IMG/VR virus record: IMGVR_UViG_3300035506_000159
Length of the DNA stretch: 64,000 nt
DNA from: an uncultured virus (IMG/VR IMGVR_UViG_3300035506_000159)
Taxonomy: Duplodnaviria > Heunggongvirae > Uroviricota > Caudoviricetes
Strand: one strand, 5' to 3'
Below the pieces are notes generated by a model. The model was given only the letters and a program-made list of their open reading frames with translations, was not told the origin of the DNA and did no database searches. A program made the translations under genes and the position numbers. Of the stretch, positions 6,473 through 22,950 are shown in pieces (position 1 is the first letter of the stretch; each line of letters starts with the position of its first letter).

Positions 6473-6483
6473 AGAAATTATAG

Positions 6484-6528: not shown

Positions 6529-6566
6529 ATATTTAGTAAGTGAGTGAAACAGATAGGAGTAATTAG

Positions 6567-7508: not shown

Positions 7509-7521
7509 ATTAAAATTTTTA

Positions 7522-7550
7522 TTGACAAAATAAAATTTATATTATATAAT
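7522..7550 (+). promoter_or_regulatory. sigma-A promoter for candidate sRNA-A
   Basis: TTGACA-N17-TATAAT. Confidence 0.8.
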
Positions 7551-7557
7551 ATTATTC

Positions 7558-7671
7558 AGTTAGTAAGAGTAATTAAACTACCTATTTTTAATATGACTTA
7601 AGGGGATTCATATTAAAGACAAGTCTACTAAGGGGATGGAATGACTAAAGTTACTCTTACTAACTTTTTTT
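7558..7671 (+). ncRNA. candidate structured sRNA-A (two UAAGGGGAU loops)
   Basis: 15-bp closing stem 7558-7572/7651-7665, U-tail, two inner hairpins each carrying TAAGGGGAT. Confidence 0.6.
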
Positions 7672-7686
7672 ATTTTTGGAGGTAAG

Positions 7687-7944
7687 ATGAAAAAGAATTG
7701 TGGAAGCTGTAAATATCTTGGCATTAACTATGACATTAATAAGCCATATGCATATTGTACTTTTAGCTATACTGTTTATAATCTTCCAATAGAGAAATGT
7801 AAAATTAATATTCTAAATAATATGGATTGTCAAGGAGCATTTTATCAGCAACGATGCTGTCTATCTCAATATATGGAATATATTTTCAATTATTCTTGGA
7901 ATCTTCAAGATATTGTAGATAGTATTATCGATAGTCAATGTTAG
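7687..7944 (+). CDS. Cys-rich hypothetical protein
   Basis: CxxC at N-terminus, GGAGG SD. Confidence 0.65.
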   Translation: MKKNCGSCKYLGINYDINKPYAYCTFSYTVYNLPIEKCKINILNNMDCQGAFYQQRCCLSQYMEYIFNYSWNLQDIVDSIIDSQC

Positions 7945-7953
7945 GAGAATACA

Positions 7954-8205
7954 ATGAAAATGGAAAATGTGCGGCATTGTCCTTTCTGCAACTCTCATGA
8001 AATTTATTCTAGTGTTCTTGTAACTGATAAAGTACAAGGTATTCTTGCTTGTAATGATTGTGGAGTTGGCTGGAATCTTACTTATAGTTTTAGCAATCTT
8101 ATCTTTTATAATGTTGATGTACAAGATAAAGACCATCTAATTACAAATTATAAAGAAACTATGCGGCAGCATCTTGTTGACATGTGGAATACTCGATATG
8201 AATAA
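7954..8205 (+). CDS. Lar-family (restriction alleviation-like) zinc-ribbon protein
   Basis: CPFC...CxxCG...WNTR signature. Confidence 0.7.
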   Translation: MKMENVRHCPFCNSHEIYSSVLVTDKVQGILACNDCGVGWNLTYSFSNLIFYNVDVQDKDHLITNYKETMRQHLVDMWNTRYE

Positions 8206-8332
8206 TAGTAAAATTAGTGGACAATTTTAAGAAAAAGTTCAGCTATAAAAATCATATAATATAACGGGGAATAATATAAATTGAAATTGTGCGGGTTTCA
8301 TATTTCTATATACTTATTAAGGAGATGTTTTT

Positions 8333-8539
8333 ATGTCACCAACATGTTTCTCTTGCGCACATTCGTATATAGATTCTGAGACTAAAGAACTTGGTTGCCG
8401 CAAATCTAAAGAATGTTCACGCACTAATCGTTGCTCAAAATATGAATCATTTTTTACCGCTTTGAATAATAAAATTATTCAACAAATGGATGAATGGGTA
8501 CATCACGATAGTACTAAGTATGACAATTTTGCATATTAG
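8333..8539 (+). CDS. Cys-rich hypothetical protein
   Basis: ORF track, AAGGAG SD. Confidence 0.65.
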   Translation: MSPTCFSCAHSYIDSETKELGCRKSKECSRTNRCSKYESFFTALNNKIIQQMDEWVHHDSTKYDNFAY

Positions 8540-8549
8540 GAGGTTTTAC

Positions 8550-8660
8550 ATGCAAATACTCTTCGCAGTCATGGCCTTTTTGTGGAGTATAGGCATGATT
8601 TTTATAATTATTTCTGTTATTTGGATTATTAGATGGCTTTGGATAAAGCTATTTAAATAA
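8550..8660 (+). CDS. small TM peptide (36 aa)
   Basis: MQILFAVMAFLWSIGMIFIIISVIW..., AGGAGG SD. Confidence 0.6.
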   Translation: MQILFAVMAFLWSIGMIFIIISVIWIIRWLWIKLFK

Positions 8661-8755
8661 TTTTGAAGAAAATATTGTTGATATACTTTCAATTGACAAT
8701 AGATAAGAATATATGTTATAATATATTTATAAGCAAGATAGAGAAAGGAACATCA

Positions 8756-8944
8756 ATGACAATGGAAGATGTTATTCTCAATGGAGAATATTCTAGTAAT
8801 TTCATTTCTGATTTTGATCTTTTCTATATTGATGAAGATAATGAATATCATTGGATTAATAAAGTTGGAAATTGTTATGAACTTTATGCTGACGCTCCAA
8901 TAGTAGAATTTGATGCTTCTGTAAAAATGATTGTCATTGAGTAG
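8756..8944 (+). CDS. hypothetical protein
   Basis: Start at MTMED after AAAGGA; promoter at 8693. Confidence 0.6.
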   Translation: MTMEDVILNGEYSSNFISDFDLFYIDEDNEYHWINKVGNCYELYADAPIVEFDASVKMIVIE

Positions 8945-8952
8945 GAGAAATA

Positions 8953-9132
8953 ATGAACGAGTTTAAGATTGGTGATTTTGCTCTCTATTCTGATAAACTC
9001 GGTTATACTGCTAAAGTAGTTGTTATTGAATATATTGATGATAATTATATTAGCTTTTATAATCTTGAAGATGAATCAGATTATGATATTGTTTCTCTAT
9101 CAACGTTTCTTGAGTGTGCGACTCTTTATTAA
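8953..9132 (+). CDS. hypothetical protein (59 aa)
   Basis: MNEFKIGDF..., AGGAG SD. Confidence 0.6.
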   Translation: MNEFKIGDFALYSDKLGYTAKVVVIEYIDDNYISFYNLEDESDYDIVSLSTFLECATLY

Positions 9133-9136
9133 AATG

Positions 9137-9175
9137 AATAAAGCCTATACAATTAATTTTGTATAGGCTTTTTAT
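9137..9175. terminator. bidirectional intrinsic terminator
   Basis: AAAGCCTATACAA/TTGTATAGGCTTT between convergent genes. Confidence 0.75.
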
Positions 9176-9453
9176 TCTAAAATTTTACCATTCTTATCTA
9201 ATTTGCGGGAAATGGGACAGGAATAAATATTCTGATATAGAGATTCCAACTCTGTATTTAGATAATCTTTATATTTTGTTGTTGAACTATCAGAATATTT
9301 TATTTCTTCCATTAAATATTCATAGGTAGCATTAATATCTTCTGTTACTTCTCTGGTACAACCTCTTTTACTTCCTTCAGGAATATAGGTTCCAATAGGA
9401 CAAATGTCACAATTCATATTTCCGCATTTGCCGCATCTAAGAGTAACAAACAT
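9172..9453 (-). CDS. Cys-rich hypothetical protein
   Basis: CxxC pairs, AAGGAGG SD, own minus-strand promoter. Confidence 0.7.
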   Translation of the reverse strand: MFVTLRCGKCGNMNCDICPIGTYIPEGSKRGCTREVTEDINATYEYLMEEIKYSDSSTTKYKDYLNTELESLYQNIYSCPISRKLDKNGKILE

Positions 9454-9587
9454 TAATCCTCCTTTCTTTGTGTCTATTGAAGATATTATATCATATCTCT
9501 ATAGTTTAGTCAAATTCTAGATTTGACAATTGCCGCAATTATATGTTATAATATAAATATAATGTCAAGAGAAAGGTGTATTGGTGT

Positions 9588-10352
9588 ATGTATAATATCG
9601 AAAATGATATTGTAGAAAAGGTAATACGCAATACAATTCATGATGCTTTTGATGCATATGCAGATGAAAGGGATACTTGTAAATTATTTTGGTATATGGA
9701 TGATGATGAATATTATTATGAAGAGAATACTCCTTGCGGCGAATATGTAGGTTCAGGTGTATCTAAATTAGTATTTGATTTTCCGCATGATGTTCCAGAT
9801 TATGTATTTAAACTTCCTTTCCAAGGTGAATGTGTGCTTGAATATGATGACAATGATGAAGTTTGTGATGAAGAATATTGGGAATTTGGATATGTATATA
9901 AGGGAACAAAAGATTATCTACAGGCACTAGATATTCCTGAAAATGACCACTGTGCTTGGGAAGTATTTCTATATGAAGAAGCTAAGAAGGCAGGAGTAGA
10001 AGAATTTTTCACAGAAGTCAATCTATTTACTATGGTTGGTCATAATCATCCTTATCCTATTTATATTTCTCCAAAAGTAGAAGAAACTTGGGAATGTTGT
10101 GATGAAGATTCTAAGACTACATCAAAAGAATCTCGTGATAAGGCAATAGAAATGCAGAAGCATAATGATATTATTTTCTATGATTATAATATTCTCGCAG
10201 CTCTTATTGACCAAACTTCATATGAAAAAGTATGCAATCTTCTAAACTTTATGCGGAAGTTCGATATTTCAGATTTGCATAGCGGTAATATTGGTATAGA
10301 CAAAAATGGTAAGATTGTAATTATTGATTATGCGGGATATGGTGGTTTTTAA
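9588..10352 (+). CDS. protein kinase-like (PKL fold) protein
   Basis: GSGVSK glycine loop, VFK lysine, DLHSGN catalytic loop, IIDY metal motif. Confidence 0.8.
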   Translation: MYNIENDIVEKVIRNTIHDAFDAYADERDTCKLFWYMDDDEYYYEENTPCGEYVGSGVSKLVFDFPHDVPDYVFKLPFQGECVLEYDDNDEVCDEEYWEFGYVYKGTKDYLQALDIPENDHCAWEVFLYEEAKKAGVEEFFTEVNLFTMVGHNHPYPIYISPKVEETWECCDEDSKTTSKESRDKAIEMQKHNDIIFYDYNILAALIDQTSYEKVCNLLNFMRKFDISDLHSGNIGIDKNGKIVIIDYAGYGGF

Positions 10353-10684
10353 TGAAGCTTTATATTAGTCTTGATTATATGGAATATGATATTGAAACTC
10401 GTAATCTAGCAGAAACCAATATCTGTGACGAAGTAGCAAAGAAATATCATGAACCTTGTTCTCCTGTGCCGCACACCGATACTATGATTATTGATTGTGA
10501 GCGACCTGTTGGAGAAAAGGCAGCTCGACTGATTCGAGTTCTCATTAACATGCAATCTGCGGATGCTGTTGTTGTTCCAGATAACTATTATGAATACTTT
10601 ACTTGCCTAGATGATATTGCAATTGCACAGATTTTTAACAAGCCGCTAATCAAATCCAATAGTAATTGGCTTAGCAAGTATTAA
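10352..10684 (+). CDS. DUF4406/nucleoside deoxyribosyltransferase-like protein
   Basis: KLYIS...ADAVVV...IA....KP pattern, degenerate. Confidence 0.4.
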   Translation: MKLYISLDYMEYDIETRNLAETNICDEVAKKYHEPCSPVPHTDTMIIDCERPVGEKAARLIRVLINMQSADAVVVPDNYYEYFTCLDDIAIAQIFNKPLIKSNSNWLSKY

Positions 10685-10703
10685 AAATATTTTAAAATTA
10701 TTC

Positions 10704-10732
10704 TTGACAAAAAATAAATCATATATTATAAT
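10704..10732 (+). promoter_or_regulatory. sigma-A promoter for ncRNAs and TROVE gene
   Basis: TTGACA-N17-TATAAT. Confidence 0.8.
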
Positions 10733-10744
10733 ATAAATATAAAC

Positions 10745-10813
10745 AATGAGTGATGGAAGAAAGAGTTACTTCATTTAGGGAAAATATATACTCTATCTTA
10801 TTATATCCTCATT
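10745..10813 (+). ncRNA. candidate Y-RNA-like RNA 1
   Basis: AATGAG/CTCATT ends pair; AAGAAAGAGT/ACTCTATCTT stem closes a loop starting TACTTC. Confidence 0.5.
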
Positions 10814-10817
10814 TCTT

Positions 10818-10954
10818 TAACGCAATAGATATGTGATTGGAGCATCAGTACGATAACTGATTTTGCGGTTACTTCTATTATAAAAAGGTGAATATTTTCT
10901 AGCCTAAGAAGCTAGCGTGTCACCGCACTCATTGCTTCCATATCTATTGCGTTA
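10818..10954 (+). ncRNA. candidate Y-RNA-like RNA 2
   Basis: Perfect 16-bp terminal stem TAACGCAATAGATATG/CATATCTATTGCGTTA; TGCGGT/ACCGCA closes a loop starting TACTTC; directly upstream of TROVE. Confidence 0.65.
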
Positions 10955-10987
10955 GTTTGGTAAAATACTATCCTCGAAGGAGAATAT

Positions 10988-12412
10988 ATGTCTAAGTTCA
11001 ATAGTGAATATAATGTTTCATCCTTTGAGGGTGGAGCTGCATTTGAACGCGAACCTCTTAAAAATTGGTTGAATACTATTCTATCTTATAATTGTGAAGA
11101 TGGATATTATATGTCCGCACAAGAAAAGATGGATGACTATATTTCTGCTACACGTATGATTATTGATACATATGGTATTAATTTTGTTTGTAAAGCAGCT
11201 AGTTTTTCTCGTAGGGCTATTGGTATGCGTTCAATTTCTCAGTTAACTGCTGCTATACTTAATAGTTATACATTTGAGAATAAGAGACAGTTTTATCATT
11301 ATTTCTGTCGTCGTCCCGATGATGTCGCGGAAATTTTTGGTGCGGTAGATATGCTAGGTAATCGTCGTAGTCATGCTCTTGTGCGGGGATGTGGTGATTA
11401 TCTATCTTCTATTAGTGATAATTATACTCTTGCCAAGTACAAGTTGACTGGCAAGAAATATAATATGTATGACCTTATTAATATTACCCATGCACATAAT
11501 TATGTTATTGATAAATATAAAAATAATACTCTTCCACCTGCTGAAACTTGGGAAAATATTATTTCCAATAGTGTAGATAAAAATAAGGATTGGGTGTATC
11601 TTGTAACCAACAATAAACTTGGTTATCTTGCTCTTATTCGTAATCTAAATAATATCCTTCCTGCTATTGAAGAAGCTGCTCCAAATCAATTTAAAACTAT
11701 TTTAGATGAATACCTTGTTCCCGCGCTTACAAATCAGTGGGTTATACGTGGTTCTCTAGTATCTCCGCTTCAAATCTATACTGCTTATAAAAATCTCAAT
11801 GTGAGGAATTATACTATTATTCATGCACTTGAAGAAGCTTTCTTGCTAAGTACAAGTAATATTCCAAACTTGGAAGGTCTTACTATGCTAGCATTTGATG
11901 TTAGTGGAAGTATGGAACAACCATTTAGTAAGAACTCTTCTCTATCTATTGTAGAAGTGTGTGCAGTTTATGCTGCTGCATTTTTTGTTTCCAATAGGAA
12001 TGTTGATATTATAAAATTTGGAGATTATGCAAAGCCTTGTAATTATTCTCGTCATGATAGTGTTTTTAATCTTATTAATAAATTCAAAGATAACGACGAG
12101 TGCGGATATGGAACATATATTAATTCTCTAATTCCGCACATGGGTGCAATCTATGACCGCGTCTTGCTATTTAGTGATATGCAAGTATGTGAAGCTAGTT
12201 ATTATCACCGAGAACAAGATTTTTATGAGAAGCTTGAAACTATGCCTGAAACTTATGTACATTCATTTGACTTAGGGCATTATAGCTCTCAATGCGTTCC
12301 AAACAATGATCATTTTCATTTCTTTACTTCATTGAGCGATAAGATTCTAGCTTTTATTCCTCTATTGGAAAAAGATGAAATGTCATTATATGATTATATT
12401 CTAAAATATTAA
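10988..12412 (+). CDS. TROVE-domain (Ro60/Rsr-like) RNA-binding protein with vWA domain
   Basis: EGGAAF, GMRS, RPDD, Y.LAKY, TWE, LGYLALIRNL; MIDAS DVSGSM, GT, SDMQ. Confidence 0.92.
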   Translation: MSKFNSEYNVSSFEGGAAFEREPLKNWLNTILSYNCEDGYYMSAQEKMDDYISATRMIIDTYGINFVCKAASFSRRAIGMRSISQLTAAILNSYTFENKRQFYHYFCRRPDDVAEIFGAVDMLGNRRSHALVRGCGDYLSSISDNYTLAKYKLTGKKYNMYDLINITHAHNYVIDKYKNNTLPPAETWENIISNSVDKNKDWVYLVTNNKLGYLALIRNLNNILPAIEEAAPNQFKTILDEYLVPALTNQWVIRGSLVSPLQIYTAYKNLNVRNYTIIHALEEAFLLSTSNIPNLEGLTMLAFDVSGSMEQPFSKNSSLSIVEVCAVYAAAFFVSNRNVDIIKFGDYAKPCNYSRHDSVFNLINKFKDNDECGYGTYINSLIPHMGAIYDRVLLFSDMQVCEASYYHREQDFYEKLETMPETYVHSFDLGHYSSQCVPNNDHFHFFTSLSDKILAFIPLLEKDEMSLYDYILKY

Positions 12413-12519
12413 AATATATTTCAAATTTCTATTGACTTAGGGATATTATTATAATATAATATCCCTAAGAGATTTGGACAAAAGGTTATAAAAAATGATT
12501 AACCACTTTCATATCTAAG

Positions 12520-12660
12520 TGTCCCCTTGTTAACGTCGGATACGTTAACTTGATATATCCCCTGAAAAGTGTATATATAAGTTCCCTTACTTAATATACA
12601 CAAACCCCTTAGAGCTATGTTTGCAGAATTTAACTATTCTATAAGCATAGCTCTTTTTTT
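12520..12660 (+). ncRNA. candidate C-rich sRNA-B
   Basis: Non-coding; hairpins interspersed with TCCCCTT, ATCCCCT, TTCCCTT, ACCCCTT; ends in terminator 12611-12660. Confidence 0.55.
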
Positions 12661-12748
12661 ATACATATTTTCTTCATATACATATTTGACTGCCGCACAT
12701 ATTATATGTTATAATATATATAACAAAGCCAAGAGAAAGGAAAAAGAA

Positions 12749-12979
12749 ATGTTCAATGCATGGGGAGAGCCTGTTATCGGCAATATGTTTTATCCTATGG
12801 TATATACTGAAACGAATAATGAGAACATGCTTAACCTTCTCGACCATCTTTGTAATATGGGAGTTCATGAAATCTCAGCTAATCGTTTTGAATCTCTTCT
12901 TGACGAATATAATGTTGATTGGGACGCACTTGATTCTGATATTCAATCAACTGTAGTTAGCTATATCGATATTGACTAG
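12749..12979 (+). CDS. hypothetical protein
   Basis: Start at MFNAWG after GAAAGG; promoter at 12687. Confidence 0.7.
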   Translation: MFNAWGEPVIGNMFYPMVYTETNNENMLNLLDHLCNMGVHEISANRFESLLDEYNVDWDALDSDIQSTVVSYIDID

Positions 12980-14750
12980 AAAGAAGATGCGGAATATGCG
13001 GCCTAAGTCTCTTTTGACTAAAGAAGATATTGTTACTATGAAAGAATATGCTCAAGCATATGCTGGAATTGATAAAGTTAACACTGATTATCTTATTAAT
13101 CCTTGGGATAAGAATAAGATGACTATGTTTAAGCTTCTTGGTAAGAAGCTTCGTGTAACTGTACCTATTAAAATTACTGTTAATCAACGTCAACAGGAAG
13201 CGGATCTCCGCACTTTTCATAGGGTTCCTTTGACTGGAACTTATGAAAAAGATAGTGGGCATATTTTTATTCGCAGGTTTGAGGAATATTTTTCTAATTT
13301 GCTTACTCAGGGTGTAATTCCAGAAATTTGTCTTGACAGATTTAAGAAAATGTTTTATAATAATAATATTCTGCGTGGTACTTTTAAAGTAGAAGTAGAA
13401 CCATATATTACATATGGAAATCTTGATATGGAAACTCATAATAATTATTATATGTTTATTAACAATAATAAACCAGATAAAGTTATCAAGATTACTAACG
13501 ATACTAAGATTCAGCGTGCTATCCAAAAGCTTTTGAAGTTTTATGATTTTCCTTATATGGATGATTATAATGATTGGAAGAATAAAGTTAGTTCTGTAAC
13601 AACTGTAAAAACCAAGATTCAGAATGTAGTTCTTAGTATTCATCCTCTGGATTTTATGACCGCATCTGATAATAATTGTAACTGGAGTTCTTGCATGTCT
13701 TGGCGTACTGGCGGATATTCTTCTGGTACACTTGAAATGATGAATAGTAATATGGTTATAATTGCATATGTTGAGAATAAAAATGATAAGTTTATGTTTA
13801 ATGAGCATGAACTTACTAATAAATCTTGGCGTGCATTTTTCTATATTCATAAAGATATTATTTGTAGCGGCAAGAATTATCCTTTCCAGAACTATGAGCT
13901 TAGTCAGGAAGTTGTAAAAGTATTGCGGGAAATGGCCGAGGAAAATCTTGGTTGGAAATATCAGTATGGTGTTCAGCAATACTATGACCTTTTCCCATTT
14001 TCACAGAATGACTATCTCCGCAATGATTATAATATTCGTTATATGCACCGCACCTATGACTGGAATCGTCATCAGTTTAATGAAGCTACATATAACTATC
14101 CTAAAAACGAGAAACATTCTATTATCATTAGTACTCTTGGTATGTATAATGATTTGGTTGAAGACCATTCTACTAAGTATTTTTGTGTGCGGAATTATGT
14201 AAAGCATAATCTTTTTCTCAATGCTTCTGGTCCCGCATATTGTCTTTGCTGCGGGCAGAGGATTAATAAGAATGAGAAGTATGATTCTTGTGAAGAAGAT
14301 TTCTTGACTCATGGTCGGCAAAAGTACTGCGAAGATTGTCAGAATAAATATCATTGTGATTGGTGCGGCGGTGTTCATAATGATGAAGAGCTATATGTAG
14401 TGAATTTCTTTCCTTTTAAAGAGCCTAGGATTCATGAAATGTATGCTACCGCAACTAAGATGGTTGTTTGTAAAAAGTGCATAGAATCTGGAGAGATTAT
14501 GTATGATGGTACAAATAATCTTTACATGTCTACAGCTGGTTATTTGTATTATAAAAAGTATGAAGATGAAATTATTGCACATTATAATGTTATAAAAGAA
14601 AATGATAAAGATGAAGAATATTCGTCTTTGCATTTTCGTCGTCATGCATACCATGTTCCTATTGACCATTCTAAAGTAATTTCCGCAAAGGAGGCTATTA
14701 GTCGTGGACTATACTGTGAAACAAAAAATTGCGATTCCCTTTCTGCTTAA
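12972..14750 (+). CDS. large hypothetical phage protein (LSIHPLDF..WSSC motif, C-terminal CxxC pairs)
   Basis: 592-aa ORF; function not assignable. Confidence 0.75.
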   Translation: MTRKKMRNMRPKSLLTKEDIVTMKEYAQAYAGIDKVNTDYLINPWDKNKMTMFKLLGKKLRVTVPIKITVNQRQQEADLRTFHRVPLTGTYEKDSGHIFIRRFEEYFSNLLTQGVIPEICLDRFKKMFYNNNILRGTFKVEVEPYITYGNLDMETHNNYYMFINNNKPDKVIKITNDTKIQRAIQKLLKFYDFPYMDDYNDWKNKVSSVTTVKTKIQNVVLSIHPLDFMTASDNNCNWSSCMSWRTGGYSSGTLEMMNSNMVIIAYVENKNDKFMFNEHELTNKSWRAFFYIHKDIICSGKNYPFQNYELSQEVVKVLREMAEENLGWKYQYGVQQYYDLFPFSQNDYLRNDYNIRYMHRTYDWNRHQFNEATYNYPKNEKHSIIISTLGMYNDLVEDHSTKYFCVRNYVKHNLFLNASGPAYCLCCGQRINKNEKYDSCEEDFLTHGRQKYCEDCQNKYHCDWCGGVHNDEELYVVNFFPFKEPRIHEMYATATKMVVCKKCIESGEIMYDGTNNLYMSTAGYLYYKKYEDEIIAHYNVIKENDKDEEYSSLHFRRHAYHVPIDHSKVISAKEAISRGLYCETKNCDSLSA

Positions 14751-15540
14751 TAGTAGACTAAATGATATTGCCGCAGAATTTAATATTGACTTTGATAATA
14801 CATTTAATAATTTTGATAAACTAATGGAATTTATTGATATGTATCCTGATACTAGGATTAATATATCTTTTGTTAATGGGCTAGATAAGACAATGGCAAA
14901 AAGACTTTCTAGGTATTCTGATAATGTTTATATTAGATTGCAAGCAAGTGATATAGGGTCTTGTCCTACTTTAGCAGAAAACAATATTAAATACTTTTTT
15001 GATAGGTCTGTATCAGCTGGAACTTATGCTAGTCTAGATGATTTTATTGCTCTTGGTGTAACAGATGTATATATTGTTGATGATTTGGTTTATAATTTGA
15101 AAGTTATGCGGAAATGGTCAGATGAACATAATATTAAACTTCGTCTTATTCTAAACAGGATTCCATCTGTTGCCTTATCTGCTGGAATGAATCCAAAATC
15201 ACCTATCTTTAGACCAGATGATATAGACTTGTTCCAAGAATATTTTGATTGTTTTGAATTTGCATTTGAGGAATATCCTGATAAAGTACAACTTGAAACC
15301 ATGTATAAAATTTGGTTTGAAGATAAAAAATGGTATGGAGAACTATCTGAAATAAATACAGATATTAAATTTTCTTTTCCAAATTATTCAATTATTCCAT
15401 TCCATAGGGATTTCAAGTTTAACTGTTGTCGCAAGTGCGAAATGAAAATGAATAATCCATGCCGCAAATGTACTCAAATTATTGAAATTGCTAATCAGCT
15501 TGCTGAAAATAGTATTTCTATTAGTATGGACAATTCTTAG
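14704..15540 (+). CDS. peptidase U32-like protein with C-terminal Cys cluster
   Basis: KLRLILN...FRPDDIDLF..YFD.F, CxxxC...CxxC at C-terminus. Confidence 0.45.
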   Translation: MDYTVKQKIAIPFLLNSRLNDIAAEFNIDFDNTFNNFDKLMEFIDMYPDTRINISFVNGLDKTMAKRLSRYSDNVYIRLQASDIGSCPTLAENNIKYFFDRSVSAGTYASLDDFIALGVTDVYIVDDLVYNLKVMRKWSDEHNIKLRLILNRIPSVALSAGMNPKSPIFRPDDIDLFQEYFDCFEFAFEEYPDKVQLETMYKIWFEDKKWYGELSEINTDIKFSFPNYSIIPFHRDFKFNCCRKCEMKMNNPCRKCTQIIEIANQLAENSISISMDNS

Positions 15541-15617
15541 AAATAAATATAATACATTTTTTAAATATATTGACGAGCGTTATTTTTCTTCGCTGAACCA
15601 AGAAAGGATTTATCCAA

Positions 15618-16382
15618 TTGAGGAATAAAGGAAAAAAAATAACGAGGGTTATAATATTGGCTCTTGTATGCATGTTATTTGTACCTAGTCTAGCATATGC
15701 TAATACTGGAGAACTTCGTGCAAAGTTAAATCTAGTTGAAAATGAAAATAGTAATATATTTGAACAAAAACTAGATGAAGAAAAGACAGAATTTATTGAA
15801 GATGCTGAATCAAAGTTTGATACATGGGAAGAGTATCTTACTAGTACTCAGATTGATTTATATAATGATTTGATTGATAAAGCATTTTCTGCTTCTTCTT
15901 TAGGAGAGATTGAAAATTACAGGTCTAGTATAGATTCTATTATGACCAAGGGAGAAGAGGCAAAAGAGAAAGCAGAGGAACAAGCTAGAATTGCGGCTGA
16001 AGATGCTAAAAAAGCTAAAGCATCTGAAGAAGCTAAAACCGCACAGCAAAGTTCCACCACTTCAAATACACCAACCAATAGCACCAGTGAAAATGAACAA
16101 TCTTCTTCTATTGGTATGACAGGACAACAATTCAAATCTGCGGGAGTTGTCTATATGAATGGTATTAGATATACTTACTATAGTAGTAGGGTATTGTATC
16201 ATTATAGGACTTCTGAGTGGTATGTAGATTCTAACGGCTTTTATAGGACCGCAGATGGGTATTTAGTTGTTGCTTGTTACTTTTTGCCGCAAGGCTCTAC
16301 AGTATCTACTCCTTGGGGAACGGGTATGGTATTAGATAGTGGAGCTGGCAGCAATACAGTAGATATGTATGTTTGCTTTTAA
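15618..16382 (+). CDS. secreted protein, coiled coil plus 3D-like (lytic transglycosylase-type) domain
   Basis: Signal peptide ending AYA; VVA..LPQGS.V....G.VLDSG....VDMY. Confidence 0.6.
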   Translation: MRNKGKKITRVIILALVCMLFVPSLAYANTGELRAKLNLVENENSNIFEQKLDEEKTEFIEDAESKFDTWEEYLTSTQIDLYNDLIDKAFSASSLGEIENYRSSIDSIMTKGEEAKEKAEEQARIAAEDAKKAKASEEAKTAQQSSTTSNTPTNSTSENEQSSSIGMTGQQFKSAGVVYMNGIRYTYYSSRVLYHYRTSEWYVDSNGFYRTADGYLVVACYFLPQGSTVSTPWGTGMVLDSGAGSNTVDMYVCF

Positions 16383-16406
16383 GGTGCATGTTATAAGGGA
16401 GATATA

Positions 16407-16787
16407 ATGTCTATCAAGAATAATGAAAAGAAACTGAAATTTTTATTCATTATTGTTGCGGCAATTATTGTAATTTCTTTGTGTCTTGTTATTTTTTCAT
16501 GTAATCAAAAGCAAACTACTAATATGATTATTCAGCATGAAGAAAATAATAGTAATCCTTCGATAGATGTACAAGGTGATGTTATCTATCATAATATTAC
16601 TATTTATGATGGAAATGGAAGTATTGTAGCTAACTATAAAGGTAAGTATAATGCACTTCGCAATGGTGAAATATTAACCTTGACAGATGATACTAGTAAT
16701 GATATAATTACTATATCACTGGGAGAGAATTATACTATTGTAGATATTGCGGGAAGTGCAAATGATACAATTGCCACTGTTAGTTAG
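16407..16787 (+). CDS. membrane-anchored hypothetical protein
   Basis: N-terminal TM helix. Confidence 0.7.
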   Translation: MSIKNNEKKLKFLFIIVAAIIVISLCLVIFSCNQKQTTNMIIQHEENNSNPSIDVQGDVIYHNITIYDGNGSIVANYKGKYNALRNGEILTLTDDTSNDIITISLGENYTIVDIAGSANDTIATVS

Positions 16788-16795
16788 GAGATATA

Positions 16796-17092
16796 ATGAA
16801 ACCATATGGAATAAATATTAATGCTAGTTTTGTTGAAACAGACAATGGATGTGAAGTTGCAGTTAAGCTCGATGATAGTGAAGGTTTACAATTAGCAAAA
16901 CGAGTTAAAGGCAATGATGCAGAAAAATGTTTGGAAGCTATGTATAAGGTTATTGCCCAAGAAATGATTGTGCATAAACTAGGAGATAATAAGAATTGCG
17001 AAGATAGTAGTCTTGAAGATTACGCTCGTCAAGAAAAAGTGACACCAAAGACTACTAAGAACCGCATTAATATTTTTAAAGATTGGTTTTAA
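16796..17092 (+). CDS. hypothetical protein
   Basis: ORF track, AGGAG SD. Confidence 0.7.
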   Translation: MKPYGININASFVETDNGCEVAVKLDDSEGLQLAKRVKGNDAEKCLEAMYKVIAQEMIVHKLGDNKNCEDSSLEDYARQEKVTPKTTKNRINIFKDWF

Positions 17093-17111
17093 TTTTTAGA
17101 GGAGAAAGATA

Positions 17112-17417
17112 ATGGAAGACATTATTCTTAATGATGGTACTTTTATCTATAGTGAAGAAGGTGTTAAAGATTATCTTTCTTCTCTTGGTTTTTCCATAGA
17201 ATATTTGCGGACCATGTTCTCTGATGATAATAAAATATTTGAACTTGAACAACAGCTTAAAGACAGTGAAATTTATGAAGATGCTCTTTATTGTTCTAAA
17301 AGAGACATGGTACAGGATATTTCAGAAGTATGTGACGATATGAAGTCTTATCTTAAAGGTAAGAAATCTCGTGAATATATTTCCAAAATAGAAGATATAA
17401 TTGAATATTATACGTAA
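17112..17417 (+). CDS. hypothetical protein
   Basis: ORF track, GAGGAG SD. Confidence 0.7.
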   Translation: MEDIILNDGTFIYSEEGVKDYLSSLGFSIEYLRTMFSDDNKIFELEQQLKDSEIYEDALYCSKRDMVQDISEVCDDMKSYLKGKKSREYISKIEDIIEYYT

Positions 17418-17432
17418 GAGCAAGGAGGAGTT

Positions 17433-17564
17433 ATGATTAGTCTAGCTATTGCTAAGGCATATTATCGCCGCATCCATCGTGGCGAAATTACAATTGAAGA
17501 TGTTCCTGAAAAGATGAAGGAACAAGTTCAGGCACTTCTTGATGAAGATAATAAAACTGAATAA
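17433..17564 (+). CDS. CD1375/XkdX-like small tail-associated protein (43 aa)
   Basis: MISLAIAKAYYRRIHRGEITIEDVPEKMKEQVQALL, AAGGAGG SD. Confidence 0.7.
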   Translation: MISLAIAKAYYRRIHRGEITIEDVPEKMKEQVQALLDEDNKTE

Positions 17565-17643
17565 TTATTTGATATAACAGAAGTATTATAAATATTTCTG
17601 TTATATTTTTGTATATATAGGATATATTTAAAGGGGTTTTGAT

Positions 17644-18390
17644 ATGGCTGAAGAAGTTTCAGAATCAATTATAATCAAAGATATTAAAATTAATAACAAT
17701 GGTACATTTCAATCTATTTTTCCAATTGAAGTTAGTCAAGGTGGAACTGGTTTAACTATATCTCCGCAAGCATTGGTTAATTTAGCCAGCACTGATGCAG
17801 TAGATATTTTTACAAGCAGCCCTCAGTTAGGTGTTAGTGGAATTTTACCAATTGCAAATGGCGGAATTGGTAGGTCTTCTGCTCCGTCTATGTTAACAAA
17901 TTTAAGTAGCACTACAGCTGCTAGTCCACTTTCTGCCAGTCCCAGGCCGGGTGTAACTGGAACTCTACCAATTAGTAAAGGTGGAACAGGAAAGACAACA
18001 GCAGCAGATGCTATTTCCAATCTAGGAATTAACAGTTATGTTAACTCAAGTAGTGTGGCATCTGGACTTCCAGTATCATATAGTAATTTAATTAATTGGA
18101 GCTATATTAAGTATAGCAATAATTTTGCTATTTGCGCTGGAGTGTTTTATGCAAAACAAGATACTTCTACTTATAATCCAGCTATGAGTAATTATAGTGC
18201 AACTTTTCCATTTACATTTAAATTTGCTCCAGCAGTAAATATAAACTGTTATATGGATGGATTGAATGTAGCACAAATTAATTATGTTAAATCAACTACA
18301 ACTGACGTTAATTTTTGGGCTAGAAGAGAACAAAGTACAACGGTGGCATATACTCAATGTTACATTATTGTTGCAGGAACTTATGCTTAA
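17644..18390 (+). CDS. tail-fibre-tip-like protein, paralog 1
   Basis: QSIFPI..QGGTG N-terminus, G.LPI.xGGTG repeats, C-terminal YIKYSN..FPFTF domain. Confidence 0.7.
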   Translation: MAEEVSESIIIKDIKINNNGTFQSIFPIEVSQGGTGLTISPQALVNLASTDAVDIFTSSPQLGVSGILPIANGGIGRSSAPSMLTNLSSTTAASPLSASPRPGVTGTLPISKGGTGKTTAADAISNLGINSYVNSSSVASGLPVSYSNLINWSYIKYSNNFAICAGVFYAKQDTSTYNPAMSNYSATFPFTFKFAPAVNINCYMDGLNVAQINYVKSTTTDVNFWARREQSTTVAYTQCYIIVAGTYA

Positions 18391-18403
18391 TTAAGGAGAT
18401 AAA

Positions 18404-18697
18404 ATGAAATATGTAGACAATACTGAGAATCATAATGAAATGCCAGAAGATTTTAATCATGATGATTACTATTTTATGGAAACAATGATTGCAAAACATG
18501 GTGCCTATGATACTATTGATAATGTAACTAAGTTTGCATTAGATGAAGATGATTATGAGTATGTAACTATTTGTAATCCAAAATCTGATCCAATTTATCA
18601 AAGTATGCTAGCGAGTATTCAGCGAGAAGAAAATATTAATTCAATTCCAGAGCTTGATAAAGCCATCTGTGATTTGTATGAAATGTTTGCTGAATAA
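18404..18697 (+). CDS. putative fibre chaperone, paralog A
   Basis: EMPEDFN.DDY, IAK.GAYDTIDNVTKF, D.A.CDLYE. Confidence 0.55.
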   Translation: MKYVDNTENHNEMPEDFNHDDYYFMETMIAKHGAYDTIDNVTKFALDEDDYEYVTICNPKSDPIYQSMLASIQREENINSIPELDKAICDLYEMFAE

Positions 18698-18783
18698 TTC
18701 TTGTAAAAGAAAAGGGGATATAAATGGGGATTTATTTACCTTTTCTTAATAATTAAAATATAATAGAAAGGTAAAATATAGTT

Positions 18784-19695
18784 ATGTCTGTTTCAGATAT
18801 TCAAATTAAAGCAGGAAATGATTTCAAATCTATTTTTCCTATTACTCCAAGTCAAGGAGGAACTGGTTTAAAGACAAGTCCACAAGCTATTACAAATTTA
18901 GCAAGCAATGAATCTTCAAATATTTTTATAGAGAATCCTTCTATTGGCGTAACTGGTATTCTTCCTATTTCTAATGGAGGTACTGGACTTTCAGCTTCTC
19001 CCTCTTTAATTACTAATCTAAGTTCTAATAATCCGGAATCTCTTTTTCAAGAAAATCCGCGGCCTGGCGTTACTGGAATATTGCCATTAGCAAATGGTGG
19101 AACTGGAATTAATTTTAATCCATATATTCAGTTTGATTTATCTTCAAATGACTCTGTATCTTTATTTGATGCTTCTAATAGTAATATCACTCCTGGAGTT
19201 ACTGGCACACTACCTATTAGCAAGGGTGGTACTGGAGCTACTACAGAATCTAATGCTAGAACAAATTTAGGAATAAATACCTATGTATTAAGTAGCGGTG
19301 GTCAAGGTTCTTATGATTATAATACATATGAGTGGAGTGGTAATCAGTTAAATCCATCTGTTAATAGCAAGATTAGGTATGACTGGATAAAATATAGTAA
19401 TGGATTGGCAGTAATGTCAGTTCTTATTAGATATAGCAAACTTCCCGCATATAGTGCTTTACATTGCTATTTTACCCTACCATTTGCTTTTACCCACCCA
19501 GCAATTGTTAATGCTGGCTGTTCTGTAGATTCAGACAATGCCTGTTATATGACATATGTTAGAGGAGCATCAGGGTCTGTCGATTCTTATCTATATCGTT
19601 CTAGCACTAGTACTTCAGTAGGCTTAGAACTATATTATATTGTATCTGGATGCTGGGATTCTAGTCTTTCTTATGCGGCTAATGGAGTTTCATAA
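18784..19695 (+). CDS. tail-fibre-tip-like protein, paralog 2
   Basis: SIFPI..QGGTG, four GGTG repeats, ARTNLG, WIKYSNG..LPFAF. Confidence 0.7.
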   Translation: MSVSDIQIKAGNDFKSIFPITPSQGGTGLKTSPQAITNLASNESSNIFIENPSIGVTGILPISNGGTGLSASPSLITNLSSNNPESLFQENPRPGVTGILPLANGGTGINFNPYIQFDLSSNDSVSLFDASNSNITPGVTGTLPISKGGTGATTESNARTNLGINTYVLSSGGQGSYDYNTYEWSGNQLNPSVNSKIRYDWIKYSNGLAVMSVLIRYSKLPAYSALHCYFTLPFAFTHPAIVNAGCSVDSDNACYMTYVRGASGSVDSYLYRSSTSTSVGLELYYIVSGCWDSSLSYAANGVS

Positions 19696-20597
19696 TGGAA
19701 GATATTAAAATTAAAAATACTAATGGAGAATATCAATCTATTTTTCCAATTAAAATTAATCAAGGTGGCACTGGAAAAAACACTGAAAATAAAATTATAG
19801 TTGATTTATATTCTAAAGATAAAAAGAATATTTTTGAAGATGAAGAAACAAAAATTGGAATTAAAAATATTCTTTCTGTTGTTAATGGCGGAACAGGTAT
19901 CAGTACTAGTCCAAAAGCGATATTGAACTTGAATAATAATTCCACTTTACAACCTATATATAACACAAATATAGAATATGGATTAGATTCATCTAGTGTA
20001 TTACAAATATCTAATGGTGGTACTGGGAAAAATTCAAATATTAATTTATATGGTTATCTAAATTTAAATAGCAAAAGAAATCTTTTTCAATCTAATTCTC
20101 CTGCTTATACTGGTTCAACAGGTATATTAAATATAAATAATGGCGGAACAAATGCTTCTGAATCTTCTGTAGCATTATCTAATATTGGAATTAAAGACTA
20201 TATTGTAGAAAATAACATTTGGAGTTCACTTGGAGATTGGGATAATTTATCATCTTATTTAGGAACAGTTGACAATATTCAATGGTTTTATTTAAAATAT
20301 GCAAATGGTATTGCATTGTGTCATGGAAGCGCAAGATTTCTTACTATTCCTGCTGTTAGCTATACTCCTTTTACAATAAACTTATCAGCTAGTCTTCCGA
20401 TGGAATTTGCTTATCCTCCAGCAACATCCATTAACTGCTCTTTCCCGTCAGATACGACAAGCGGAGTCTATTATATTAGGTCTACTACAGATTCAATAAA
20501 TTTTTGGGTATATAGGAAATATAATACTAGTACTGCATTAAGTCAAAATGATGCATTAATGTTATATTTTAATGTCATGGGCAGATGGAAAGAATAA
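19695..20597 (+). CDS. tail-fibre-tip-like protein, paralog 3
   Basis: QSIFPI..QGGTG, NGGT repeats, YLKYANG..LPMEF. Confidence 0.7.
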   Translation: MEDIKIKNTNGEYQSIFPIKINQGGTGKNTENKIIVDLYSKDKKNIFEDEETKIGIKNILSVVNGGTGISTSPKAILNLNNNSTLQPIYNTNIEYGLDSSSVLQISNGGTGKNSNINLYGYLNLNSKRNLFQSNSPAYTGSTGILNINNGGTNASESSVALSNIGIKDYIVENNIWSSLGDWDNLSSYLGTVDNIQWFYLKYANGIALCHGSARFLTIPAVSYTPFTINLSASLPMEFAYPPATSINCSFPSDTTSGVYYIRSTTDSINFWVYRKYNTSTALSQNDALMLYFNVMGRWKE

Positions 20598-20657
20598 ATT
20601 AAAATTAATTTGGGGATATATCTCTTTCTAGGGGAATAGAAAGGAGATATATAAACA

Positions 20658-22004
20658 ATGTCTATAACAAATATTAAAATTAAAAATAATAGTGGAGAAT
20701 TTCAATCTATTTTTCCTATCACCATAGAACAAGGTGGAACAAATGCGGAAAACTTGAGTGATGCTCAATATAATTTGGGCATCACTGATGCTAGAAAAAT
20801 AGCGACTAATTACATCGATGAAAATTCAGATAATGGAACAATTAATATAGGCAATATCGATAAAATTAATAACCCATCTGGTGTTTCTGGAACTCCTTAT
20901 AGTATCGAATTAACTTCTGATGCAATCAATTTTAATGATGCTGATAAGGGGACTACTCCTATTTCAATTCAAGATGTAGCTAACTCTAAAAAAGATGATA
21001 ATGGTTTAATTGTTAATCTCAATAAAGTATTAGTATATACTAATGATGCTGGATTCCAATGCAGAAAGAATGGTACAGATGGAGTACTATATGAAGCAAA
21101 TCTTGGAATCCAAAAAGCAGGAGAAGTATATATTTCTAATTGGAACAAAGAAAGTAATACATTAGTAAATCAACTTTGTTTAAATAGTTCTGAAACATAT
21201 ACTCCCAATAATTTGCGGACTGGTAAAAAACTTTCTGCCGCAGGAGATTTAGCAATATCTGGTGATTCTACTTTAACAGGTAATCTTATCTGTTCTGGGA
21301 CTACAGATTTTCCATTGCCAGTCCATTATGGAAATATTACAGAGTTAGATAGTCAAAATGTTGGTTTAAATAGTTTTACAAGTGTTGAAGATTCTCCAGT
21401 ATATACTGGTCAATTATTAACTTTATCTACAAATAGAGATATTAGTTCTATTGATAAAACTACTGAAAATGATGCAGGAGGAGCTGCGCAACTAGCTTTT
21501 GATAGTTTTTATAATTCAATATATCATAGAGCATATCAACCATATAGCGATACAGAAGATATATCTGGTTGGGGCGATTGGTATAAATTATTAGATACAA
21601 ATAATTGTAAAGATTATATAATATCAGTCGAGAATCCAGGAGATAATGTTAAAGGTGGTTGGCTTTCTATAAAGTTTGCGAATGGCTTTGCAATATGTGC
21701 ATTACAACAAATAAAAGATATTAATACTAATATTCAATGGACCAGTGGTTATAGAACTAAATCTGGTGAAGGATTTGGAAATGTAGATTTTCCATTTGAA
21801 TTTGCTAATAAACAAATTCCTTATATAAGTGCTCAATTACTTGATAATGGAAACAATTGGTGTTGGTTAATGCAAAATGGTTATCAAGCAGAAAGTGATC
21901 CAACTACATATAAACATTTAGGAGAGTGGCTGGTTTATAGGCCAGCTGTTATGAATACAGCGGGTATGAGAGCTTGTTTCATATGTATAGGATTCTGGAA
22001 ATAA
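20658..22004 (+). CDS. tail-fibre-tip-like protein, paralog 4
   Basis: QSIFPI..QGGT, larger middle region, WGDWYK, IKFANG..FPFEF..IGFWK. Confidence 0.7.
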   Translation: MSITNIKIKNNSGEFQSIFPITIEQGGTNAENLSDAQYNLGITDARKIATNYIDENSDNGTINIGNIDKINNPSGVSGTPYSIELTSDAINFNDADKGTTPISIQDVANSKKDDNGLIVNLNKVLVYTNDAGFQCRKNGTDGVLYEANLGIQKAGEVYISNWNKESNTLVNQLCLNSSETYTPNNLRTGKKLSAAGDLAISGDSTLTGNLICSGTTDFPLPVHYGNITELDSQNVGLNSFTSVEDSPVYTGQLLTLSTNRDISSIDKTTENDAGGAAQLAFDSFYNSIYHRAYQPYSDTEDISGWGDWYKLLDTNNCKDYIISVENPGDNVKGGWLSIKFANGFAICALQQIKDINTNIQWTSGYRTKSGEGFGNVDFPFEFANKQIPYISAQLLDNGNNWCWLMQNGYQAESDPTTYKHLGEWLVYRPAVMNTAGMRACFICIGFWK

Positions 22005-22041
22005 TAAACCATATTGTTGTAATTAACTGAGGAGAAGATTA

Positions 22042-22320
22042 ATGAGATATATAGATGTAAATCGCCAAGAAATGCCAGATAATTTTAATAAAGATGACTA
22101 TACAATTGCTGAAGCTACAATTGCTAAAGATGGAGCTTATGATACAATTGATAATGTGACTAAATTTTTTCTAAATCAAGATGATTATGAAAAAGTTTAT
22201 ATGTGCTATCCAAAGGTTGAAAATGAAAATATAATTAGCCCAATAGAAGAAACTTTGATTGAACATGACCAAGCACTATGTGATTTATATGAAATTTTAA
22301 ATAATGCTGGCTTAGCATAA
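22042..22320 (+). CDS. putative fibre chaperone, paralog B
   Basis: Shares GAYDTIDNVTKF and CDLYE with 18404..18697. Confidence 0.55.
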   Translation: MRYIDVNRQEMPDNFNKDDYTIAEATIAKDGAYDTIDNVTKFFLNQDDYEKVYMCYPKVENENIISPIEETLIEHDQALCDLYEILNNAGLA

Positions 22321-22324
22321 TAAT

Positions 22325-22356
22325 AAGAGGACTAGAATTTTTCTAGTCCTTTTTTA
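22325..22356 (+). terminator. intrinsic terminator
   Basis: AGGACTAGAA/TTCTAGTCCT plus T-run, followed directly by a TTGACA promoter. Confidence 0.8.
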
Positions 22357-22419
22357 TTGACAAAAAATATATATTATAATATAATTATAATATATAAACC
22401 AATAGACAAAGGAGAAGTC

Positions 22420-22896: not shown

Positions 22897-22950
22897 CAAT
22901 AAATTTAAAAATATGTTATAATATAATCAACGAAAGAGAGAAAGGATATT

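Follow-up and report, generated by a model that had tools for sequence, protein, structure and literature searches.

We analysed 64,000 nucleotides (nt) of DNA from an uncultured virus of the Caudoviricetes (IMG/VR record IMGVR_UViG_3300035506_000159), a stretch that is hereafter called the window. Two putative small RNAs (sRNAs), termed sRNA-A and sRNA-B, lie on its + strand around a gene for a Ro60 homologue, upstream of four genes for tail-fibre-like proteins (paralogs 1 to 4). The window represents that arm of a large gut phage in which the early genes and those of nucleic-acid metabolism lie, its G+C content is approximately 31%, and its + strand gene run spans 2279 to 58811. A first-pass annotation of the sequence had proposed a circuit in which sRNA-B blocks paralog 1, shifts paralog 2 and the coupled paralog 3 off, and opens paralog 4, with sRNA-A as a sponge, so that the receptor-binding protein would be switched at the RNA level. 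The features concerned are the following.

7522-7550, + strand: promoter of sRNA-A, TTGACA-17-TATAAT, 12/12 match to the sigma-70 consensus
7558-7672, + strand: sRNA-A, 5' and 3' ends joined by a 17-bp stem, two inner hairpins, then U7
12432-12460, + strand: promoter of sRNA-B, TTGACT-17-TATAAT, 11/12 match to the sigma-70 consensus
12436-12449 and 12456-12469: perfect 14-bp inverted repeat (CTTAGGGATATTAT / ATAATATCCCTAAG, 100% complementary) bracketing the -10 box of the sRNA-B promoter
12467-12661, + strand: sRNA-B, approximately 195 nt, main seed 12551-12564, terminator stem 12611-12654, then U7
17631-17639, + strand: Shine-Dalgarno (SD) sequence of paralog 1, AAGGGGUUU, the 9-nt complement of sRNA-B 12602-12610, 5-13 nt before the ATG at 17644
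17644-18390, + strand: paralog 1 gene, phrog_11393 'tail fiber protein' (2.1e-11)
18698-18783, + strand: paralog 2 leader, G-runs at 18714 and 18726, site 18713-18722, anti-SD CCUUUUCU at 18739-18747, SD at 18765-18773
18784-19695, + strand: paralog 2 gene, phrog_11393 (1.3e-16), weak match to PDB chain 8vbx_R 'Tail fiber (gp47)' (E 0.002)
19695-20597, + strand: paralog 3 gene, phrog_11393 (4.2e-8), start overlapping the paralog 2 stop (TAATG)
20598-20657, + strand: paralog 4 leader, site 20612-20622, hairpin 20616-20652 that buries the SD (20640-20647) and holds GGGGAA in its loop
20658-22004, + strand: paralog 4 gene, no PHROG fibre match and no PDB match

The four fibre-like genes are intact and co-oriented, and their products have a common N-terminus and divergent C-termini. 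Paralogs 1-3 are 31-37% identical to one another over their full length, and their phrog_11393 matches cover stretches of approximately 60-75 residues. Paralog 4 resembles them only in the N-terminal 50-80 residues, where it shows 37.5% protein identity with paralog 2 across the first 80. The array does not belong to a structural or late module; it lies on the + strand among Ro60, tRNA, RNA-repair, and replication genes. A fifth fibre-like gene (59237-60208, - strand; PHROG tail-fibre matches of approximately 1e-6) was identified in a - strand block that begins at 58858, and this block, at the right end of the window, may be the true structural module.

Sequence anatomy, motif enrichment, and the in-silico ranking and leader switch described here were computed. 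sRNA-B carries three CCCC motifs and one CCC motif (12523-12526, 12559-12562, 12584-12586, and 12605-12608), all of which were unpaired in both the lowest-energy and the centroid folds. The two seeds that were scored cost 0.1-1.1 kcal/mol to open, i.e. they were almost fully unpaired. The predicted fold has an energy of -51.8 kcal/mol (z -6.43), which none of 200 shuffles equalled, and it ends in a terminator with 19-nt stem arms followed by U7. The sole open reading frame (ORF) seen by eye within sRNA-B (12496-12519, ATG...TAA) has seven codons, is preceded only by a weak SD-like AAAGG, and is probably without meaning.

sRNA-A is likewise strongly folded (-31.2 kcal/mol, z -4.04; 0 of 200 shuffles equal). 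Its inner hairpins display UAAGGGGAU in loop regions at 7599-7607 and 7629-7637, and TAAGGGGAT is present twice (7599 and 7629), as claimed in the first-pass annotation, and nowhere else on either strand of the window. Opening either G-run region cost 1.1-1.3 kcal/mol (with positions taken to within 1-2 nt), and the G-runs are exactly complementary to the C-rich motifs of sRNA-B over 7-8 nt. For both RNAs, the orientation of the promoter and the T-run fits transcription from the + strand, and judged by sequence both look like + strand transcription units. The automated terminator scan listed neither stem. Immediately 3' of the U-run of sRNA-A are the SD and ATG of gene 7687, and no promoter was found between the terminator and this gene among the promoter matches listed. 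Hence, sRNA-A may be a cis-acting leader rather than a free RNA, and it may serve as a transcription attenuator for genes 7687-8205. The genes in 7672-8205 encode two small Cys-rich zinc-ribbon-like proteins of 85 and 83 amino acids, with a weak match to Lar_restr_allev (5.7e-5, below the cut-off). Three other ideas were considered and provisionally set aside: sRNA-A as a CRISPR-repeat mimic, as its two units are too unlike each other; a CsrA-type protein sponge, as no CsrA-like gene was seen; and a put/nut-type antitermination RNA.

The exact complementarities reported in the first pass were all confirmed. GATATATCCCC (12552-12562) is the reverse complement of GGGGATATATC before paralog 4 (20612-20622, 11 nt), TATATCCCCT (12554-12563) that of AGGGGATATA before paralog 2 (18713-18722, 10 nt), and AAACCCCTT (12602-12610) that of AAGGGGTTT, the SD of paralog 1 (17631-17639, 9 nt). 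The runs that form the cores of these matches are unevenly distributed. CCCC occurs 11 times in the 64 kb, and the three copies in sRNA-B, which lie within 86 nt, are all three of the intergenic ones (binomial P ~2e-4). Ten GGGG runs are intergenic on the + strand, and five of them fall in the fibre leaders, which make up 372 of 6563 intergenic nt (binomial P ~1e-4). The other five comprise two in sRNA-A, one before gene 8333, and two in the non-coding stretches 41433-41657 and 52826-53039; these stretches adjoin homing-endonuclease genes and may be introns. Among the 34 GGGG runs on the + strand, only three extend to at least 9 nt of complementarity with sRNA-B, and all three are in fibre leaders. 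When the cores were fixed and the flanks shuffled (20,000 trials), at least 3 of the 10 intergenic GGGG sites reached at least 9 nt with P = 0.011-0.028.

Next to these counts stands a ranking of 87 start regions by an IntaRNA-like score, namely the energy of the duplex together with the cost of opening each of the two RNAs. As controls, 99 shuffles were used in which the body of sRNA-B was permuted and the terminator kept. The scores of the proposed partners were as follows.

Paralog 2 start region: rank 1/87, net -12.7 kcal/mol, equalled by 1/99 shuffles
sRNA-A region (upstream of gene 7687): rank 2/87, net -11.4 kcal/mol, equalled by 12% of 99 shuffles
Paralog 4 start region: rank 3/87, net -9.3 kcal/mol, equalled by 0/99 shuffles
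Paralog 1 start region: rank 10/87, net -6.9 kcal/mol, equalled by 26% of 99 shuffles
Paralog 3 start region: rank 39/87, net -3.9 kcal/mol, equalled by 75% of 99 shuffles

The sum of the scores of the four leaders was equalled by 2% of the shuffles. Thus, the idea that the fibre leaders rank above shuffled controls held for paralogs 2 and 4 when accessibility was included, and failed for paralogs 1 and 3 and for plain duplex energies.

The leader of paralog 2 was predicted to adopt two alternative folds. In the lowest-energy fold, AGAAAAGG(GG) pairs with CCUUUUCU in a helix of 18707-18715 with 18739-18747, and the probability of the SD being unpaired is 0.40. When 18712-18723 was masked as if bound, CCUUUUCU paired with the SD instead and this probability fell to approximately 1e-5. 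The proposed shift of paralog 2 into an off state was therefore reproduced in silico. The start of paralog 3 overlaps the stop of paralog 2, and translational coupling is therefore plausible; its own start region has only the low rank given above. The leader of paralog 4 shares GGGGAUAUA and a second G-run with that of paralog 2 and forms a stable hairpin (-16.9 kcal/mol, z -3.57; 0 of 200 shuffles equal). Its predicted opening by sRNA-B was not reproduced: with 20611-20623 masked, the SD remained buried, with an unpaired probability of 7e-9 to 1e-6. For paralog 1 the complementary stretch coincides with the SD, which a bound sRNA-B would therefore cover directly. The claimed block of this gene fared poorly in view of the shuffles that matched its pairing.

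Transcription, pairing in vivo, and an effect on virions are what we infer from these computations. sRNA-B would be an independent small RNA, transcribed early under a promoter of host type, and would also be carried on the 3' end of the Ro60 transcript. Its unpaired CCCC/CCC motifs would pair with GGGG-type SD-like sites in the manner of the Firmicute C-rich sRNAs RoxS, FsrA, and RsaE, and its targets would be the G-runs, rare between genes, which occur in two sRNA-A loops and in the leaders of three of the four fibre-like paralogs. Paralog 2 has the best predicted effect: an occupied AGGGGAUAUA site would free the anti-SD to bury the ribosome site, and translational coupling would then carry the effect over to paralog 3. 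For paralog 1, sRNA-B might mask the SD directly, though weakly. sRNA-A would be a G-rich decoy resembling RosA or RsaI; a simpler view makes it the leader, terminator included, of genes 7687-8205, also touched by sRNA-B. The net outcome would be an early RNA that restrains fibre-like genes within an early-transcribed block.

Such restraint is the most economical reading, and a choice between paralogs is less likely. That sRNA-B binds one or more of the fibre leaders by pairing and thereby alters expression is, on these models, a tentative proposal that we take seriously and place short of probable. The circuit as first drawn was partly upheld: the open seeds, the concentration of GGGG runs, and the ranking of paralogs 2 and 4 speak for it, whereas the opening of paralog 4, the block of paralog 1, and the sponge do not. 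The sponge is weakened both by the shuffles that equal the pairing of sRNA-A and by its possible nature as a cis leader. The complete circuit (paralog 1 blocked, paralogs 2 and 3 shut off, paralog 4 opened, sRNA-A a sponge, and a receptor switch as the result) is a subset of the tentative proposal, and we hold it to be very improbable; the receptor switch in particular stacks one inference on another and is unproven. Also very unlikely, in our estimate, is a private Shine-Dalgarno code, in which GGGG-type SD-like sites would occur only in the leaders of four receptor-binding fibre genes, be read by an early sRNA-B whose promoter is under a palindromic operator, and be buffered by sRNA-A, so that the fibre mix of the virion would be determined after transcription, with neither DNA inversion nor mutagenic retrohoming involved.

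Several results weigh against even the restraint of fibre-like genes, and most of them are also the case for there being no regulatory link at all. In that event the RNAs would be lineage-specific filler, a 3' untranslated region or a leader, the G-runs would be SD variants, and the complementarity would have arisen by chance around rare cores in an AT-rich genome. By length alone the complementarity is at background: 70 exact matches of at least 9 nt, and 7 of at least 11 nt, were found between sRNA-B and the + strand of the window. Plain duplex energies are at background too. These were computed in windows, an unrestricted duplexfold run having been discarded for its unrealistically long duplexes. 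They placed the fibre leaders at ranks 7, 10, 20, and 22 of the 87 start regions, and 150 dinucleotide shuffles of sRNA-B did equally well or better in 19-58% of cases per leader and in 23% for the sum. The best plain-duplex score (-23.8) was that of the stretch 41433-41657, which we took as incidental. Even with accessibility, the pairings of paralog 1, paralog 3, and sRNA-A do not rise above the shuffles. UAAGGGGAU differs by one base from the common SD context of the phage, UAAGGAGAU, and the motif with one mismatch allowed is not enriched (24 matches against 28.2 ± 5.2 expected). Therefore, the G-runs near starts may be plain SD variants. All significance tests were chosen post hoc in one genome, and the sites of paralogs 2 and 4 share the seed 12551-12564 and the motif GGGGAUAUA, so that they amount to approximately one event plus a copy rather than two independent ones.

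Conservation gave no help either. The relatives that we found are gut-type phage contigs of approximately 140 kb, and the Ro60 proteins of 46 of 49 loci are 36-48% identical to that of the window; of the remaining three, one matches at 28% and two are partial or at 40-41%. No match to 7000-21000 was found among GenBank phages by megablast, nor to sRNA-A or sRNA-B by blastn in a distant mode, and exact 20-mers of the two RNAs had 0 matches in viral contigs. Searching the 49 Ro60 loci by blastn-short and nhmmer gave nothing significant; the best E values were 5.7 for sRNA-A and 0.11 for sRNA-B, the latter match covering the query's downstream promoter part. In viral contigs, 27 loci fitted a pattern of three motifs, none of which was sRNA-B-like by eye; many were tandem repeats or GC-rich DNA. 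Three CCCC motifs within 110 nt were present in only one of the 49 relatives (L045, 47.5% GC), 8 kb from Ro60. Downstream of Ro60, the relatives have a terminator and a promoter before the next gene and lack an RNA of 200 nt, and in the six RuvB-bearing loci inspected coding sequence directly follows RuvB, with no sRNA-A-like unit. The four-fibre array was absent from the 49 loci and from five whole records, save for short partial matches: one short N-terminal match in L044 and weak partial matches in two of the five records. On the sequences searched, sRNA-A, sRNA-B, and the fibre array therefore appear to be lineage-specific and to co-occur only here, which is compatible with a linked function in a sample of one. 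Six gut metatranscriptome runs contained 45-56% of the sampled words of 7500-13000, a figure that does not tell the part, the strand, or the transcript ends.

What the absence of any link leaves unaccounted for is that the CCCC cluster and the GGGG enrichment each have P of approximately 1e-4, that both RNAs fold far better than shuffles, that strong promoters and terminators bound both units, and that the top three of the accessibility-weighted ranking are exactly the proposed partners. We therefore consider it unlikely, if by no means negligible, that the two RNAs have no regulatory connection with the fibre-like genes.

A second alternative to restraint of the fibre-like genes is that the pair is directed at the host. 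sRNA-B would then mimic the C-rich sRNAs of the host and act on G-rich ribosome sites of host mRNAs, sRNA-A would mimic a G-rich host sponge and titrate C-rich sRNAs of the host, and the matches in the phage fibre leaders would be incidental or secondary. The anatomy of the RNAs (folds, C and G motifs, and open seeds) would be the same, and consensus host-type early promoters on both units fit host takeover. In the available portions of PMC8216469 and PMC6158497, the C-rich/G-rich RNA network is described as a host metabolic circuit in Bacillus and Staphylococcus. Mimicry by homology found no counterpart in our searches, as no Rfam family was assigned to sRNA-A, sRNA-B, or the Ro60 leader, and neither RNA is thus homologous to any family that Rfam holds. 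A scan of 12380-12740 with 4227 Rfam models at E <= 10 gave only chance-level matches and none to an RsaE/RoxS family. Rfam includes an RsaE model. A weak, chance-level match to RsaOG (20.7 bits, cut-off 50, E 0.57) fell on the sRNA-B promoter region and not on sRNA-A. Host targeting also leaves unexplained why G-runs are concentrated in the fibre leaders and why their flanks extend the pairing. On balance, a host-directed pair seems to us rather unlikely.

A third alternative is that the reader of the yTAAGGGGAT(AT) motif is not sRNA-B but a protein or a transcription system specific to the phage, the motif serving either as a DNA operator or promoter element or as a loop motif for an RNA-binding protein; the complementarity of sRNA-B would then be a by-product of inverted copies. 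The perfect inverted repeat around the -10 box of the sRNA-B promoter (CTTAGGGATATTAT / ATAATATCCCTAAG) has a half-site that resembles the G-run motif. Such a palindrome over a promoter looks like an operator and suggests a DNA-binding protein, and in this it counts against restraint of the fibre-like genes by sRNA-B. GGGGATATA is confined to three places, namely the leaders of paralogs 2 and 4 and, in inverted form, sRNA-B. Both G-runs of paralog 2 lie directly upstream of a weak promoter-like site (18735-18764), and several G-runs are held in hairpin loops, the usual display of protein-binding RNA sites. In other viral contigs, L076 and L078 (approximately 1501-1619) and also L053 and L058, we observed tandem repeats of GTGTCCCCTTAG or GTATCCCCTTAGGGATAC, which on inspection may be iterons and show that CCCCTT-type motifs can be DNA repeats. 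Outside sRNA-B, however, the + strand has all ten G-runs that lie between genes, whereas the - strand has none. Their restriction to the transcribed strand fits an RNA-level or directional role and not an orientation-free operator, and the position of several of them in hairpin loops likewise weighs against an orientation-free DNA site. Moreover, the spacing of the copies is irregular (30, 12, 19, 36, and 46 nt), no DNA-binding family was matched in the small neighbouring proteins, and a half-site model does not account for the stems that flank single copies. We hold a protein or transcription system as the reader of the motif to be unlikely yet a serious competitor, and restraint by sRNA-B remains the reading that we carry forward.

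The gene directly upstream of sRNA-B encodes the Ro60 homologue, whose leader contains two Y-RNA-like modules.

10704-10732, + strand: promoter of the Y-module/Ro60 transcript, 12/12 consensus
10742-10816, + strand: Y-RNA-like module 1, GUGAUGG...GUUACUUC...UAUCC with a closing stem; 60.1 bits with the covariance model CM R1, as a training row
10825-10947, + strand: Y-RNA-like module 2, GUGAUUGG...GGUUACUUC...UUCC with a longer insert; found as a motif match, with a 14-bp closing stem in the fold
10988-12412, + strand: Ro60/TROVE homologue, 474 amino acids; Pfam TROVE 4.1e-8, above the cut-off

The homologue also matched vWA_Ro60 (1e-5; 26.0 bits, under its 27.7-bit cut-off) and phrog_850 'RNA-binding protein' (3.7e-18), and tblastn with the protein matched 84 phage records, several of which are annotated as Ro-like. 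In many relatives, the Y-RNA-like module recurs upstream of Ro60, in one to four copies, and further copies lie 7-11 kb downstream. The family has the invariant motif GUGA...UAC..C...UCC. In alignment A2 (22 modules, module 1 included), three variable closing-stem pairs were kept in 22/22 with 11-13 double changes, and many versions in relatives have YrlA-like T-arm and D-arm sequences. This widespread, well-covarying family in gut phages of approximately 140 kb is missed by the current Rfam models: no Y RNA or YrlA match was obtained in the window, and an Rfam scan of 6 of the 49 relatives gave no YrlA at gathering scores, its 49 matches being 48 tRNAs and one ROOL. The ROOL RNA (L031, 18139-18797; 284 bits) lies beside tRNAs and Y-like modules in a related phage, and none was found in the window. 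In three more distant relatives (L043, L047, and L048), a tRNA or tRNA-like sequence directly follows Ro60, the position that sRNA-B occupies in the window.

Within the window, the family motif was found at 10750 and 10833 only. CM R1, run across the whole window with filters off at E <= 10, matched both leader modules (module 2 being the second-best hit, a weak one of 14.7 bits and E 0.81) and neither sRNA-A nor sRNA-B. The RNA partners of Ro60 are, judged by sequence, likely to be these two leader modules (10742-10947). In the part of PMC4201824 (Chen et al. 2014) available to us, bacterial Y RNAs are situated within 4 kb of Ro60 on the same strand. sRNA-B starts 55 nt past the Ro60 stop, and a distance of 3.3 kb separates the end of sRNA-A from the start of Ro60 further downstream; both RNAs are on the Ro60 strand. 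The likeness to YrlA and YrlB of the same source, small structured RNAs beside Ro60 on the same strand, lies in the 10742-10947 modules and in the tRNA-like forms that relatives carry; the motif that it gives for bacterial Y RNAs, GNCGAAN0-1G, differs from the GUGAUGG / GUUACUUC / UUUCC of this phage family, and sRNA-A and sRNA-B differ from YrlA and YrlB in having no Y-family motifs. That sRNA-A, sRNA-B, or both are extra Y RNA partners of Ro60 can be given scarcely any weight, for beyond their strand and distance and the end-to-end stem of sRNA-A, which is typical of Y RNAs, the invariant motif and closing stem are confined to 10742-10816 and 10825-10947, the covariance model missed both RNAs, no tRNA or YrlA match indicative of a T-arm, acceptor-like stem, or D-arm domain was found in either by ARAGORN or Rfam, and relatives retain Ro60 and its Y modules without either RNA.

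The remaining features of the window place these elements in their surroundings.

6567-7508, + strand: RuvB, by annotation
24338-25208, + strand: seven tRNAs, by ARAGORN and Rfam, the sole tRNAs found in the window
26102-28382, + strand: RNA ligase, polynucleotide kinase, and phosphoesterase, by annotation

The RNA ligase, polynucleotide kinase, and phosphoesterase genes adjoin the tRNA cluster and, together with Ro60, constitute an RNA repair and quality-control set. Further annotated genes encode topoisomerase II, DNA ligase, PhoH, DnaB, primase, RecJ, DNA polymerase, NrdD, and several homing endonucleases. The last, of the GIY-YIG and HNH types (34436-35404, 37242-38123, 40575-41657, and 51809-55052), interrupt or flank replication and nucleotide genes; NrdD is present as two ORFs split around an HNH gene, and the structured non-coding stretch of 225 nt at 41433-41657, 3' of an endonuclease, may be an intron. 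Nine perfect TTGACA/TATAAT promoters were found on the + strand of 6000-24000. Gene order was kept across the 49 Ro60 loci for RuvB in 7, g9576 in 40, g12972 in 11, g14704 in 19, and g15618 in 11. Two closer Ro60 relatives appeared in the protein search, P0001 (99%, on a 3.5-kb contig) and P0002 (56%, on a 23-kb contig), and both were absent from the single-protein scans of viral and metagenome contigs.

Whatever the link to the fibre-like genes, the locus has two putative RNAs, apparently specific to this lineage, inserted on either side of a phage Ro60 gene. Should sRNA-B indeed gate the fibre-like genes, the phage could adjust its host range or its adsorption through RNA, and the C-rich/G-rich sRNA logic of Firmicutes would extend to viruses. 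Phage-encoded trans-acting sRNAs with known targets are few, and none is known to control the receptor-binding proteins of its own phage. Among the matches listed, the titles and abstracts of the literature on phage-encoded small RNAs likewise contained no case of a phage sRNA that governs its own tail fibres.

Phages are known to vary their tail fibres by invertible segments, such as those of Mu Gin and P1 Cin, and by diversity-generating retroelements. The array described here resembles these systems in its several alternative fibre-like proteins with a common N-terminus and divergent C-termini, and differs in that any choice among them would be post-transcriptional. Neither an invertase nor a reverse transcriptase was seen near the array, and no search was aimed at them. 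A second comparison is offered by RNAIII of S. aureus, which acts by SD masking on spa and rot and by anti-antisense activation on hla. The C-rich loops of sRNA-B are similarly predicted to mask an SD, that of paralog 1. Unlike in RNAIII activation, the opening of the paralog 4 hairpin was not reproduced, and the mechanism predicted for paralog 2 is the reverse one, upstream binding releasing an anti-SD.

The closest resemblance is to RoxS and FsrA of B. subtilis and RsaE of S. aureus. As predicted from its sequence, sRNA-B resembles them in standing alone as a unit bounded by a sigma-A-type promoter and an intrinsic terminator, and in having several unpaired CCCC/CCC motifs. According to the available portion of PMC8216469, RoxS and FsrA have C-rich regions that pair with G-rich regions of the RosA sponge, which lie in single-stranded stretches, as well as with SD regions, the four G-C pairs being indispensable. 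The predicted pairing of sRNA-B with G-rich SD-like sequences, in which a G-C core carries the interaction, corresponds to that description as far as it goes. In contrast to these three bacterial sRNAs, to which the Rfam scan showed no sequence or structure homology, sRNA-B lies in a phage genome immediately behind a Ro60 gene, and its best predicted targets are the phage's own fibre-like genes rather than central metabolism. sRNA-A resembles RosA of B. subtilis and RsaI/RsaOG of S. aureus, G-rich RNAs that sponge C-rich sRNAs through exposed GGGG regions, in having two GGGG motifs in accessible loops with 7-8 nt complementary to sRNA-B, and differs in that it is possibly not a free RNA and that its pairing is equalled by shuffles at the frequency given above. 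By analogy, it is plausible that sRNA-A and sRNA-B form a C-rich/G-rich RNA pair of the RoxS/RosA style, alike in mode of action rather than by homology.

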